From Octopus vulgaris (lineage: Eukaryota), in NCBI GenBank assembly GCA_951406725.2, contig OX597815.1:131688001-131752000 (forward strand): DNA of 64,000 nt. Direction: 5' to 3'. Positions within the stretch are counted from its first letter, which is position 1. Every line of letters begins with the position of its first letter. Position numbers and translations under genes: made by a program. This document shows, in pieces, positions 9,905-54,592 of this stretch. Below the pieces are notes generated by a model. It was not told the DNA's origin. It ran no database searches and was given only the letters and a program-made list of their open reading frames with translations.

Positions 9905-9949
9905 CGTGTGTTGACAAGAGACAATAATCTCGAAACTGCAGTCCATGCG
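9905..9949 (+). ncRNA. Type I hammerhead, U3-A8 variant, apparently intact; predicted cleavage after 9943
   Basis: Stem I CGTGTG/CATGCG (2 GU pairs), core TTGACAA, stem II GAGA/TCTC, GAAAC-TGCA-GTC with palindromic stem III. Confidence 0.85.
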
Positions 9950-21635: not shown

Positions 21636-22810
21636 CTATGTATATTTCCTATTTAGTATTGGGGAAGTTCCATTTATAAGGTCGTGCTCACCTATTTGTC
21701 TGAGTGTTAGGCCTTTTGGGTGATTGGATAAGATGCAGATGTCAAGTTGACCCAGGTTGCCTCCATGTTGGCCTTTGGTATGTTGGTAGACATATTGTCT
21801 CAGATGTTCATTTTGTCGTTCTGCATTGCTCCTAGATGTCTCCCCTATGTATGTCTTGTTCATATCTTTACAATCACCTTCTATGCATATTATGCTGTAA
21901 ACTACATTTCTAGTTCTACAGTTAATGACAGGGCTAACCCTACATACCATGCAGTTATCATTGGTGCATATGGTATTCTCAAATGGGTACTCCTATATAA
22001 TTGTGATCTGACGGGGTTCCCTGGCTTTTCAACAATATTAATGTTGAGTTTGGTCTCCTTTAGAGCTTTTCTAAATCTACGGGCTAGTTCTGCATGGGCT
22101 GTGGCCTCTACAAACATCACTCTTTGATATTTGTCAGTTTTATACCACGTGTTCGCCCTGTTTGCTTTGTCACAATTTCTTTGTATCCTATTCGATTGTT
22201 TGTTTCTATATCTAGGGCAGGTACCACAGGTATCATTACGTTATTTAATTCCTTTCTAGCCCCCCACCCCACCCCTGTATACTCGAACCCTATCTTTCTG
22301 ATCATAACCAGAGAACTGCATGCGGTGCATGTAATTCTGTATATGCTTTTCGTTTCACAGAGTTCGCATAGTGGGTACACATTGTTTATTATTCTTACTA
22401 GGTCTGCTATTAGTATGTTAATTTTCATGATGTGTGACAAAACTGAGTTCTTGTGAACAACGTATTTTGAAGCTATGGGTTTCATGTAATGGGAATGGAG
22501 GAGCTGCACTCTATTGTTCATAGTCTCTAACCAAATTTCAGTATCAATTACAGGGAGACTATTGCTGGGGTGCTTAGTGGGGTAATCTACAGTTACCTTG
22601 ATTCTTTGGTGGATGGAGTTAGCTATTTGCTGGGTGCTCTCCATTATGTTCTTCTCAGTTTCTGCACTACCGCCACTAGAGTTGGTCCTAACTATGCTAT
22701 CAATTTCATCTACATATCTACTGTAGAGTAGAAGAGTTGTGGACTGTTCTGCTAAATTTTGTATAAGTTTTCTGTCCCACCAGGTCATGAAGAGGCCGGT
22801 CACATCTCCA
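21636..22810 (-). mobile_element. Penelope-like element, RT C-terminal half plus GIY-YIG endonuclease, frameshifted pseudogene
   Basis: YSRYVDEI (RT YxDD-like), LPVIDTEI, HYMKP; NVVYSIIC...TYIGETSRSNAERQNEH (GIY-YIG). Confidence 0.9.
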
Positions 22811-23338
22811 GAAATATTATCTTTCAGCGTTTCATTCGAACGTTCTAGACTAGATAAGATAACCCAATAGCCTCACTTACCAACACAACCCGACCGCAGA
22901 CCAACCAGTACTTCAGTGACGTCTGCTTCTTGGAGACGTGTAGTAGTTTTCCTATTCCACTCAGAGCCACGTAACTCATTCGTATTTTTTTACTACTTTA
23001 TATCGTCTGTGTGTTCACATCAGCCACTTCACTAAGCGCTTTATCTACTCCTTTCTCCCTTGAATGTCATTCTACCGGATTCTTTCATTTCTTGTGGTTA
23101 TTGTGCGGTGTTGTTTCAAGAGGAAATCCAACCCTATCGATGTTATCGGTTTCCAGGGAGCTATGAAGCCCTCAGGTACAGTCCCTTCGTGTGATCATTA
23201 ACTGTATAAAAATATTTTCCTTATAAAAGAGAAACCATTATTTTTGTGTCTCAAAACTTCCATCTCCGTTCAATATTTAATACATGACATGAAACATGAC
23301 GTAAATTGCTAAAAATTTTTCATCTAAAATATATTAGA

Positions 23339-45465: not shown

Positions 45466-45922
45466 AAGGGGGAAATAATATCTAAACCCAAACCACTATC
45501 ATTATAAGCAATAAATACATCCCTGCTACAGGTTGGTATATATTGCATATTGCTAGAAAGCTCCACGCGAATGATTGATATAACCATATAATCCCTGGGT
45601 TATAAAGCATACCATTGAAGTTAGCTTTGAAGAAAACACGGCGCATTGGTGAGAAAGCTTTTTGAAGCACATAACAGTACGAATCCTCATATGACAAAGG
45701 AAAACCATAAATCAATTAACAATGAAAGCGAACTAAACGCTCCTTAATGTTATTGTGCTGTGGGTAGTAAAGGATTTGCGCTACACTCTAACTCATAATA
45801 ACTTCATATTATACTTGTACAAAGATAAATTATTTGGGCATGCACTCAATGTATCATTGGAGAGGAAACACATAATTTAATTACTGCTGAAGTTTAGTAC
45901 ATTGCTCTAACCACAATTATAT

Positions 45923-45976
<54 letters not shown>

Positions 45977-46093
45977 AATATAAGAGAGTGTTCACTATAT
46001 TGATCACTCTAGCACTAGTTAATCCAAGAGGTTTCAACCACGAAAAATACATGTTTCCCATGAAAGCCGGTACGACTGTTAGTTCACACGGAC

Positions 46094-46171
46094 CTTGGGA
46101 CAATTGTTTCGCTATTAATGAATTAAATGTAATATTACTTACAGTAATCCATTTGTAGCTCTTCAGCCAAG
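46094..46171 (-). ncRNA. Canonical type I hammerhead ribozyme, intact
   Basis: Minus strand CTTGG-CTGAAGA-GCTA...TAGC-GAAAC-AATT-GTC-CCAAG. Confidence 0.9.
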
Positions 46172-46187
46172 GCTATCTTATCGTTGC

Positions 46188-46262
46188 CTTGGCTGAAGAG
46201 CTACAAATATTATGTAAGTAATATTACATTTAATTCATTAATAGCGAAACAATTGTCCCAAG
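46188..46262 (+). ncRNA. Canonical type I hammerhead ribozyme, intact; predicted cleavage after C46257
   Basis: Stem I CTTGG/CCAAG, core CTGAAGA, stem II GCTA/TAGC, GAAAC-AATT-GTC. Confidence 0.92.
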
Positions 46263-46538
46263 ATAATCTGTATTTTTGTTATTTTTTATTTGCCCTGTCC
46301 GTGTGAACTAACAGTCGTACCGGCTTTCATGGGAAACATGTATTTTTCGTGGTTGAAACCTCTTGGATTAACTAGTGCTAGAGTGATCAATATAGTGAAC
46401 ACTCTCTTATATTTATTTTGAAAATATTATAATATGTTATAAAATATTATAATAATCCAGGTTTCTCGTAGCACTAGGCCACTTGGTGTGGAATAAATAT
46501 ACTATTAAATTAGTATCTAATTCTCTCACCCTTATTAA

Positions 46539-46589
<51 letters not shown>

Positions 46590-46748
46590 AAGTTGGTTTG
46601 TGAAAGCACGTGGTTGAATATATATAAAATAGTAAACAGTGAAAAAACTACAGAAGGCTTGTTTTAAAAGGTTAAAAAATATATATTTGAGTCAATATGT
46701 CTGAAGAATCTTATAAATTTTGTTTCTTACAATGACATAGTTTAGAAG

Positions 46749-46782
46749 AAATGACGGGTTTCGCGTTCAGCTTTTCAAATTT
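46749..46782 (-). ncRNA. Minimal type I hammerhead, U3-A8 variant, mirror copy
   Basis: Minus strand AAAT-TTGAAAA-GC-tgaac-GC-GAAA-CCCG-TC-ATTT. Confidence 0.65.
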
Positions 46783-46810
46783 GAAAAGCTGAACGCGAAA
46801 CCGGTCATTT
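46777..46810 (+). ncRNA. Minimal (34-nt) type I hammerhead, U3-A8 variant; predicted cleavage after 46806
   Basis: AAAT-TTGAAAA-GC-tgaac-GC-GAAA-CCGG-TC-ATTT. Confidence 0.8.
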
Positions 46811-46839
46811 CTTCTAAACTATATCATTGTAAGAAAGTA

Positions 46840-51760: not shown

Positions 51761-51885
51761 CTGTATGTATGTATGTATGTCTGTATGTATGTATGTAGAA
51801 GGTTGAAAAGGAACACACGAGTTGATATATATGGAAAAAAGAGACAACACAGAAAATGGTAAATTAATTTTATAAAAAAACATTT

Positions 51886-51921
51886 CAGTACCGGTTTCAG
51901 GCATTGAGACTTTTTCAACTG
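51886..51921 (-). ncRNA. Minimal hammerhead, U3-A8 variant, one stem II mismatch
   Basis: Minus strand CAG-TTGAAAA-AGTC-tcaat-GCCT-GAAA-CCGG-TA-CTG. Confidence 0.7.
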
Positions 51922-53213
51922 TAAGTATGGAAAACAATTAAATTTTGGAAAGATTAAAAGAAAAGTTTTTTAAGAGATTATTTGAATAGTGCTCAAATAC
52001 AAGTAGCATTTTCCTTGTTTCTGCATGTTTCTCTCTCTCTTGTTTCCTCTTGTGGGTTCGAGGTCGTTGTGAATTCTTCGTAGGGAAGAAGAAGAAGAAG
52101 AAGAAGAAGAAGAAGAAGAAGAAGAAGAAGAAGAAGAAGAAGAAGAAGAAGAAGAAGAAGAAGAAGAATGCGGGAGAGCCATAACAGTAGTATGTTGAAT
52201 GGCCAACTGCCCCGAAGGTGAACCGCAGTGAATAACAGCATTGATTGAATTCCTGAAACATCTCTTTTGAATGTTTTGGTTATAAAACTTGCGTAGGTGT
52301 TATTCTAAATAGCAACAGTGGTAAAGTTGGGAAGGAGGTGGCGAAGAGGAAGAAGAAGAAAGAGAAGGGACAATAAGAAGGAATGTAGGTAGTATGATAG
52401 CAGTAAGGTGTTAATGGTCAAGTGACATAAAATTGGATCGTTATGGATTATAGCAGTCACTGGAACTGTTTTTTAATGAATTCTTGGGAATCTTTTGAGT
52501 GCATCATTTTTAATATTTGCGTGTTATTCTAAGGCCGTGGTGGATATGTCGTTTGTTGTAGGCGCCTTCAAAAGGGGTCTATATTTTGTAATAAAGAGAG
52601 TCTCTTTACTAATTCGTTGGCTACAGGTTGTATCGTCCCTGAATTGGTAGAGGGGAAAAATTCTGAAGCTTGGATTTTTGTTATTGACACAAAGGTCTAT
52701 GAGTTGGCTGAATGCTATTTTTCTGTTTTGGGGAATTTTGATCTGAAATCTGAGCAGAGCCATTCTTTTACATAGACTGGTTTTTGTTTGCCCTATGTAT
52801 TCCTCTCGACACCCAGAGCAAGTTAGTGCGAATATGAAGTTCTCCGAAGCACATGTGAAGTTCATTTTCACTGTGAAACATTGTCCCTGAAGGAGAGCTC
52901 TGATCCCTCAATTGAATTGACGCATATCCCACAGTTACGTCTTCCGCATTTTTTACTGACGGCGTCTGTGTTGTCGTTGAGCGTATTCAGGCTTGTGTTA
53001 GGAGACTTTTCATAAATTTAGGCTGTCTCTTGCTTTTTATCAAGGCGTGTGTTTTTGGAGGATTAAGGTCATTCTGTGGTCCTTTTTTAGCAGGGGAATG
53101 TTTTGACGGATACTGTCAAAGGCTTCATTGTTGAAAGGGTTGTGCGTGATGTATGTTAGGGCTTTTGGTTGTAAATCCTTCTTTAATTTGAGATGGCTGA
53201 GTTCCTGGATGTT

Positions 53214-53393
53214 GAGCAGCAGGAATAAAGCCACTGATGAGTCTAGATTTGCTGTATTTCCTGACAGTGGTCTAGTGTAGGTCTGGAGACTTTGTGATCA
53301 AGAATTTGATGTGAAAAGATTGCAGCCAATAATGAAACATGGCAGCTATTCTGTGATGGTCTGAGGAGCAATTTAGAGCAATGGTTGATCAAA
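53214..53393 (+). repeat. 180-bp copy of the neighbouring Tc1 segment 55384-55563 inserted in the PLE
   Basis: Identical apart from 2 substitutions by eye. Confidence 0.93.
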
Positions 53394-54505
53394 TGGTTGA
53401 AAGCATACGTCAATTAGTTCCTGGTAATGAGTGGGTAGTTTCTGGTAATGAGTGTATCCTTTAGTTCATGAAATCGTGTGTCTCTGATGTTTGCATTAGA
53501 AACTATAGCACATATCCTTTTTGCTAGGTTGAAGGGGATATTCATTCTGATGTATTTGGGGAGGCATGAATTGAGCGGTAGATATTGCTTGGAGTCCGTA
53601 GGCTTATAGTATATATCTCTTTCTATTACGTTGTTAGATTTCTTAATGAGGATGTCGAGGAAGGGCAGTTGTTGCTGGCTATATTGAATGTTTACGTCAA
53701 GTCCATTTAAAAGTGCTTGGATTTCTTTAAGTTTCTCCGTATTTTCATGCCGAAGAATGAAACAGTCATCCAGGTATCTCTTCCAGTTATTTTCTGTGTA
53801 GGAGGAGAGGAGAATGGGATGCCGTATTTTTCTAGAATCTTACGATAAAGACTAATTTCTAGAAATACAATGACTAGGTTAGCAAAGGAGGGGGCCATTC
53901 TCGTACCCATCGCAGTCCCCGATTTTTTTGGTAGAAGTTGTCTTTGAAGACGAAGCAGTTATTGTCCAGAATGAATTTTAGCCCTTCTATCACGAATTCT
54001 TTTTTGATGCGATGTGGGAGTTCGTTGGCGTAATTCTCTAGCCAGAATTGAATTGCCTCTATTCCTAGATTGTGGGAGATATTTGAATAGAGTTTGAATA
54101 CGTCGAAGGATACTAGTAGGGTGGTTTTGTTTATTGTTTTAAGAAGGTTATTGAGCATATCCATGTCGTCCCTTATATAGCTTTTGACATGCTTAAAGAA
54201 TGGTTTTAAGAGGGTATCTAAAAAATTACTGAGGCGGTGGGTTTCACATGCAGGACCCGCATTCTTCTTCTTCTTCTTCTTCTTCTTCTTCTTCTTCTTC
54301 TTCTTCTTCTTCTTCTTCTTCTTCTTCTTCTTCTTCTTCTTCCCTACCAAGAATTCACAACGACTTCGAACCCGCAAGAGTAAACAAGAGAGAGAGAAAC
54401 AGACAGAAACAAGGATAATGCCACTTGTATTTGAACACTATGCAAATATTCTTTTAAAAAACTTTTCATTTAAGTTTTCCAAAATTTAATTGTTTTCCAT
54501 ACTTA

Positions 54506-54541
54506 CAGTTGAAAAAGTCTCAATGACTGAAACCGGTACTG
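54506..54541 (+). ncRNA. Minimal hammerhead, U3-A8 variant, apparently intact; predicted cleavage after 54538
   Basis: CAG-TTGAAAA-AGTC-tcaat-GACT-GAAA-CCGG-TA-CTG. Confidence 0.8.
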
Positions 54542-54592
54542 AAATGTTTTTTATAAAATTATTTTACTCTTTTCTACCTTGACCTTTTCCCC

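Follow-up and report, generated by a model that had tools for sequence, protein, structure and literature searches.

Two opposed hammerheads within one insertion

The window analysed here is a 64,000-nucleotide stretch of the Octopus vulgaris genome (contig OX597815.1, positions 131,688,001 to 131,752,000 of assembly GCA_951406725.2), a 2.8 Gb genome rich in AT and in microsatellites. It contains two hammerhead ribozyme motifs on opposite strands, both lying within a single 574-bp insertion (45973–46546) of a 535-bp hammerhead-bearing tandem repeat in an (AT)n run. Pattern scanning of both strands placed the forward hammerhead at 46188–46262 (CTTGG-CTGAAGA-GCTA..TAGC-GAAAC-AATT-GTC-CCAAG) and a minus-strand counterpart with the same motif string at 46171–46094, 16 nt apart (46172–46187), in agreement with the positions given in an earlier note on this DNA. 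Each possesses the CUGANGA/GAAA/NUH core together with helices I and II, as expected of a type I hammerhead, and cleavage is predicted to follow 46257 (+) and 46099 (−). Rfam returned no matches in the window at gathering thresholds, hammerhead models included, and a relaxed hammerhead scan yielded only two further window candidates, both poorer.

Monomer positions (m) are numbered from a natural unit (L010, 797–1331), in which the hammerhead occupies m172–249. The insertion is flanked by (AT)n microsatellites at 45918–45972 and 46547–46585, representing the left and right parts of the target site; family insertions end in such AT runs, and a target duplication is not readable there. Alignment to the monomer resolved an inverted arm (45973–46179, − strand; m164–404 lacking the 34 nt of m250–283 between 46093 and 46094), which terminates at the ‘short’ 3′ end of the family, m404, and a direct arm (46186–46546, + strand; m170–535, 98 % identical to the monomer), which terminates at the ‘long’ 3′ end, m535, and alone carries a ‘tail’ of ~130 nt (m405–535; 46419–46546, +). 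The arms are joined by a 6-nt spacer (46180–46185) that also matches a short stretch near m120 and may therefore be a templated insert. The element extends 129 nt beyond the end first proposed (46417), to 46546. It encodes no ORF of 110 aa or more and so has no coding capacity.

Two further details concern the arms. Read from the sequence alone, loop II includes a GTAAGT resembling a 5′ splice site, and a pyrimidine tract with CTAACAG lies ~100 nt downstream of it (m200–300; window ~46214–46315, +). Introns can occur in Penelope pLTRs. The 34-nt deletion at 46093/46094 removes a pyrimidine-rich tract and, by chance, gives the minus-strand hammerhead a helix I of 7 rather than 5 bp.

The claim that neither hammerhead has a core or stem defect stands for the cores, which are intact, but not for the stems: helix III is only 2 bp in both copies, closed by a palindromic AATT loop, and the forward copy lacks 3 nt of loop II. 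Helix III is predicted at +2.4 kcal/mol as a hairpin and at −6.4 kcal/mol as the 8-bp intermolecular duplex of its 8-nt palindrome; both ribozymes are thus of the dimer type, and folding predicts for neither a helix III stable enough for monomeric cleavage. The loss in loop II weakens distal helix II of the forward copy (forced hammerhead fold −6.5 kcal/mol, versus −15.3 kcal/mol for the family form), while the minus-strand hammerhead is identical to the youngest family form. A helix III of 1–2 bp with a palindromic loop is shared with the minimal, dimer-type hammerheads described for Penelope pLTRs (PMC4209133; review PMC6765202), and this arrangement is said to need a second copy (PMC4209133). 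Part of the same source describes dual minimal hammerheads on opposite strands ~100–700 bp apart in Schistosoma (PMC4209133). The window pair departs from the pLTR hammerheads of these sources in its long helix II, which has 4 bp and an extended AU-rich stem, and in its spacing of only 16 nt.

With one hammerhead per strand and no same-strand partner, the insertion does not contain the two or more consecutive ribozyme-bearing units of an ‘active’ retrozyme copy and, lacking a tandem unit, falls outside the definition of an active retrozyme as worded in bioRxiv 10.64898/2026.07.22.740005. The region folds into one hairpin of great length, whose −338.7 kcal/mol corresponds to z = −46 relative to 100 shuffles and whose arms are imperfect mirrors, the minus arm lacking the 34 nt just after its hammerhead and the plus arm the 3 nt in loop II. 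The earlier proposal is right that read-through transcription, in whichever direction, would give a long hairpin of dsRNA. The accompanying suggestion that self-cleavage competes with dsRNA formation is not supported: forcing the hammerhead fold within the hairpin costs 84–87 kcal/mol, these and our other fold energies being predictions that include neither tertiary contacts nor proteins, and PMC11167929 shows that a Penelope hammerhead can require its protein for cutting. Moreover, transcription of a head-to-head pair always yields the antisense arm first, and the 5′ strand of the ribozyme is then already paired upstream: in simulated folding of growing plus-strand transcripts, 12/13 and then 17/17 of its bases were paired in this way before the 3′ half existed. 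Transcripts starting in the spacer still favour another fold, by ~10 kcal/mol. Both ribozymes are therefore predicted to be trapped in the hairpin without cutting, and the description of the locus as the best candidate for active catalysis in the window is not supported: the locus holds dimer-type ribozymes without same-strand partners, and the hairpin is preferred by ~85 kcal/mol.

The 535-bp repeat family and its inverted insertions

Searching the genome with the plus arm revealed near-identical copies at 535-bp spacing (41 matches, with 40 scored of 1,857 candidates). Tandem 535-bp arrays occur at many loci, with up to ~13 units that are up to 99–100 % identical, and each head-to-tail unit carries a type I hammerhead, a family-level feature of non-LTR retrozymes. 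One 6.5-kb contig (L037, G000:C120) consists of ~12 near-identical family monomers throughout. Exact pattern searches, with a reversed control of 0 in each case, detected 808 m535 ends running into (AT)n, and hence at least 808 family insertions, 622 matches to the m404 end (some counted twice) and 2,351 hammerhead 3′ halves. The family shows a preference for (TA)n targets: the 808-end sample was itself chosen on an AT-joined 3′ end, but the opposite ends lie in AT runs as well (39/46), and only 45 ends depart from the pattern at the first base. Family contigs were also present in one sequencing run that we guess to be RNA, although contigs of this kind carry no strand, end or circle information. 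Among the papers listed in a literature search on hammerheads in octopus, none describes this family in its title or abstract opening; supplementary lists could include the repeat.

In a natural tandem pair, the minimum free energy structure is a cis double hammerhead (−175.4 kcal/mol), and folding the pair as two monomers costs 10 kcal/mol more. The trans double hammerhead is likewise predicted to be stabler than two monomers (−41.8 versus −30.6 kcal/mol). Subfamilies share an invariant core and helix III and differ in helix I by a compensatory C-G/T-A swap, suggesting that the ribozyme of the family is maintained. The double hammerhead of the tandem arrays is likely its working form, and cleavage by it would release unit-length RNA, circularised or left multimeric, to serve as template.

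Of the 808 m535 ends, we took 90 of the first 100 listed (contigs C1 and C2 only). From these we left out 2 whose flank recurs at another locus, 6 that extended past the sequence retrieved and 7 whose junctions were ambiguous, which left 75 resolved insertions. In 51 of these the 5′ part is inverted, as in Penelope insertions and as at the window locus. The earlier note described the head-to-head arrangement correctly but omitted that it is the usual form (51/75) in a family of at least 808 insertions. An automated first pass found hammerheads on both strands at 16/90 loci, 149–1,726 nt apart. The inverted arms, that of the window included, end at m403–406 in an AT run at 39 of 46 loci and at m535 at none (0/46; 7 unclassified), so in each insertion of this kind one 3′ end is long and the other short, with a tail of ~130 nt on one side only, against a published length of 30–40 nt. 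Both arms carry the same sequence variant at 24 of the 25 loci with hammerheads on both strands, the exception differing by a single base, which indicates that the two arms arise from one event.

The arms are mostly joined via a few bases of overlap, and near-symmetric junctions occur anywhere in the monomer: 19 of 51 have inner ends within 30 nt of one another, where 6.9 are expected, and 0 of 20,000 shuffles reached 19. The window locus at first appeared to be unique, but the back-to-back pattern that matched it alone was subfamily-specific; a wider search (43 matches) returned seven family loci, namely the window and six others, with gaps of 8–28 nt. Three of these (L208, L210 and L212) retain two intact cores each, 14–28 nt apart. 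Tight back-to-back junctions are also found at two of three control positions outside the ribozyme (10, 7 and 0 loci, two of the 10 being bare 20-nt palindromes that perhaps arose by chance). Given the six other ribozyme junctions and the control counts of 10 and 7, the 16-nt gap is not special.

A model of uniform, independent breakpoints predicts 1.0–2.4 tight ribozyme pairs, so the 7 observed are an excess, and 7/75 direct arms begin in m150–172 (p = 0.04, uncorrected, one of three windows). These two values and the empty third control could reflect a mild stop site or hot spot just upstream of the ribozyme, though none is required. A ribozyme-specific inversion hot spot, hinted at by the uniform model, was discarded as unneeded given the general symmetry of junctions and the control positions. 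Breakpoints are not enriched where the ribozyme would cleave (3/126 in m240–250).

Origin of the insertion and competing explanations

Our main reading, held with a probability of roughly 85 %, is that both hammerheads lie at the inner ends of a short head-to-head insertion of a 535-bp non-coding repeat, likely written by a Penelope-like RT-endonuclease and predicted to be trapped in its own hairpin. A Penelope-type RT-endonuclease would nick both strands of an (AT)n run. With the same sense RNA as template, cDNA synthesis would start from each nicked strand, at m535 for one and at ~m405 for the other. Both cDNAs would stop early and their ends would be joined head to head, often near the same template position; at the window insertion, the chance stopping points, m170 and m164, would both lie immediately 5′ of the ribozyme. 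Arms of several units would fit a circular or multimeric template, as has been proposed for non-LTR retrozymes in parts of PMC7229834 and bioRxiv 10.64898/2026.07.22.740005. Counting against the scheme, the searches detailed below found no mobilising partner for the family, and its ~130-nt tail exceeds the published 30–40 nt.

Much of this scheme has precedents in the published passages on Penelope. Cleavage and extension of both strands, with two internal start sites explaining the tail, are set out in PMC11167929; the inverted 5′ copy, the one-sided tail of 30–40 bp and (TA)n targeting in PMC8557442; and head-to-head pLTRs with palindromic junctions in PMC3846280, where self-priming on an antisense template is the preferred explanation. 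Such self-priming is a possible source of the symmetric junctions seen here. Classical L1 twin priming, in which the direct arm would begin at the site of the inverted arm's primer, is not the rule in this family: direct arms begin at positions scattered across the monomer. Pure cDNA fold-back fails at loci with widely different inner ends or with an inverted arm that exceeds the direct arm in length (e.g. L103).

The family shares with the insertion unit of endonuclease-positive Penelope elements, as described in sections of PMC8557442, PMC3846280 and PMC11167929, the head-to-head inverted 5′ copy, the one-arm tail and the (TA)n target, as well as a hammerhead in the repeat and two fixed 3′ ends such as two RT start sites would leave. 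Unlike that unit, it has no ORF, its tail is longer (~130 nt) and either arm may be a multi-unit array. With metazoan non-LTR retrozymes, as characterised in parts of PMC7229834 and bioRxiv 10.64898/2026.07.22.740005, it has in common a non-coding tandem repeat, one type I hammerhead per unit and dispersal as monomers to multimers; the same two sources propose that these retrozymes are mobilised by Penelope-like elements. The 535-bp monomer is above the 170–400 nt reported in the relevant part of Cervera 2020 (PMC7229834) and within the 51–972 bp of the bioRxiv account. Penelope elements are already known from the literature to have inverted 5′ copies, tails on one side only and hammerhead pairs on opposite strands.

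The most serious competitor to this reading, which we nevertheless regard as unlikely, is that the unit is the pLTR of an unsampled autonomous Penelope-like element and the locus its truncated end, with no separate retrozyme. The anatomy does match that of autonomous families. RT-endonuclease elements of the same anatomy occur in the genome, including one that lies 40 nt beyond the right end of the insertion, and this neighbour (46589–46836) is itself a pLTR whose relatives have an RT-endonuclease ORF upstream. However, the repeat forms long arrays of whole monomers that are free of ORFs, and an RT plus GIY-YIG ORF bounded by the repeat was not found. Searching with three Penelope proteins (tblastn) placed matches at only 3 of 136 family loci, 95–1913 bp away and in no fixed arrangement; no ORF consistently adjoins the repeat at the 136 loci, nor does any continue past m535 among the 30 of 45 atypical 3′ ends examined. 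In addition, the monomer bears no real similarity to the pLTR or flanks of two Penelope families, the relic at 52.5–54.4 kb and the neighbour at 46.6–46.8 kb. Adopting this alternative would leave the verdict on the locus unchanged.

That the inversion is an artefact of assembly at an AT-rich repeat prone to fold back is less probable still. Contigs from four sequencing runs do not bridge the junction, but a hole at such a place proves nothing either way. Where the left flank was compared across four runs, it is covered at a depth that is low and flat; three of these runs carry another base at one flank position and so probably derive from other individuals. The arms, on the other hand, differ by locus-specific deletions, are separated by a 6-nt spacer and use two distinct family-wide 3′ ends, and the anatomy recurs in 51/75 insertions; the window itself holds two further Penelope families that show it.

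Least probable of all is a selected device, either a switch that sets ribozyme against antisense or a spacer with a divergent promoter giving two single-ribozyme RNAs that dimerise in trans and cut: the two intact cores, the stability predicted for the trans double hammerhead, the retention of both cores at L208, L210 and L212 and the bidirectional pLTR promoter motifs discussed in part of PMC3846280 would all suit it, but the copy is young enough (98 % identity to the monomer) that intact cores need no selection, it bears two deletions, one of which weakens helix II, tight geometry also arises at non-ribozyme positions, and spacer-started transcripts favour another fold.

Returning to the head-to-head insertion, the locus is a real but ordinary, probably silent, 5′-inverted stump of a young Penelope-type retrozyme family; it is ordinary because the family is abundant and usually inserted inverted, and because the hairpin is predicted to block ribozyme folding here. 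Taken by itself, such a dead-on-arrival stump is of little weight. More tentatively, and with somewhat less than even confidence, we propose for the family as a whole that it is a retrozyme whose integration is carried out by a dimeric Penelope RT-endonuclease, priming on both target strands at two fixed RNA sites 130 nt apart and rolling on a circular or multimeric template on each side. If this is true, the family, rather than the locus, provides insertion-level evidence for Penelope integration of an animal retrozyme. Its at least 808 young insertions, strictly asymmetric ends and same-variant arms would then offer a ribozyme-only substrate for testing the origin of inverted and tandem Penelope copies. 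Independently of that proposal, the family is young and abundant and bears the Penelope integration signature (inversion, one-sided tail and AT targeting), which supports the idea that the Penelope machinery mobilises animal retrozymes. Inverted insertions, roughly two-thirds of those resolved, are further predicted to give rise to long dsRNA at any site of read-through transcription.

Other hammerheads and Penelope-type elements in the window

Directly to the right of the same AT run, 46589–46836 contains a second head-to-head Penelope end, with back-to-back minimal hammerhead cores of the U3-A8 variant (+46781–46806 and −46753–46778) that have a 2-bp helix II and almost no spacer. Three relatives (L252, L261 and L266) possess an upstream RT plus GIY-YIG ORF with a CxxxxCxxC linker and, following the description in part of PMC8557442, may be Neptune-like.

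A relic of a different RT plus GIY-YIG element lies at 21636–22872 (−), with a weak Pfam GIY-YIG match (E = 0.0017) below the curated cut-off. A minimal hammerhead candidate of the U3-A8 type is located at 9911–9943 (+), with a 6-bp helix I, a 4-bp helix II and a palindromic TGCA loop. Finally, a broken Penelope-like element at 51875–54552 has inverted terminal arms of 291 nt, each with a U3-A8 variant hammerhead core (+54509–54538 and −51889–51918) that starts right after a stretch resembling a 3′ splice site; its relatives elsewhere in the genome encode open frames of 780–810 aa.
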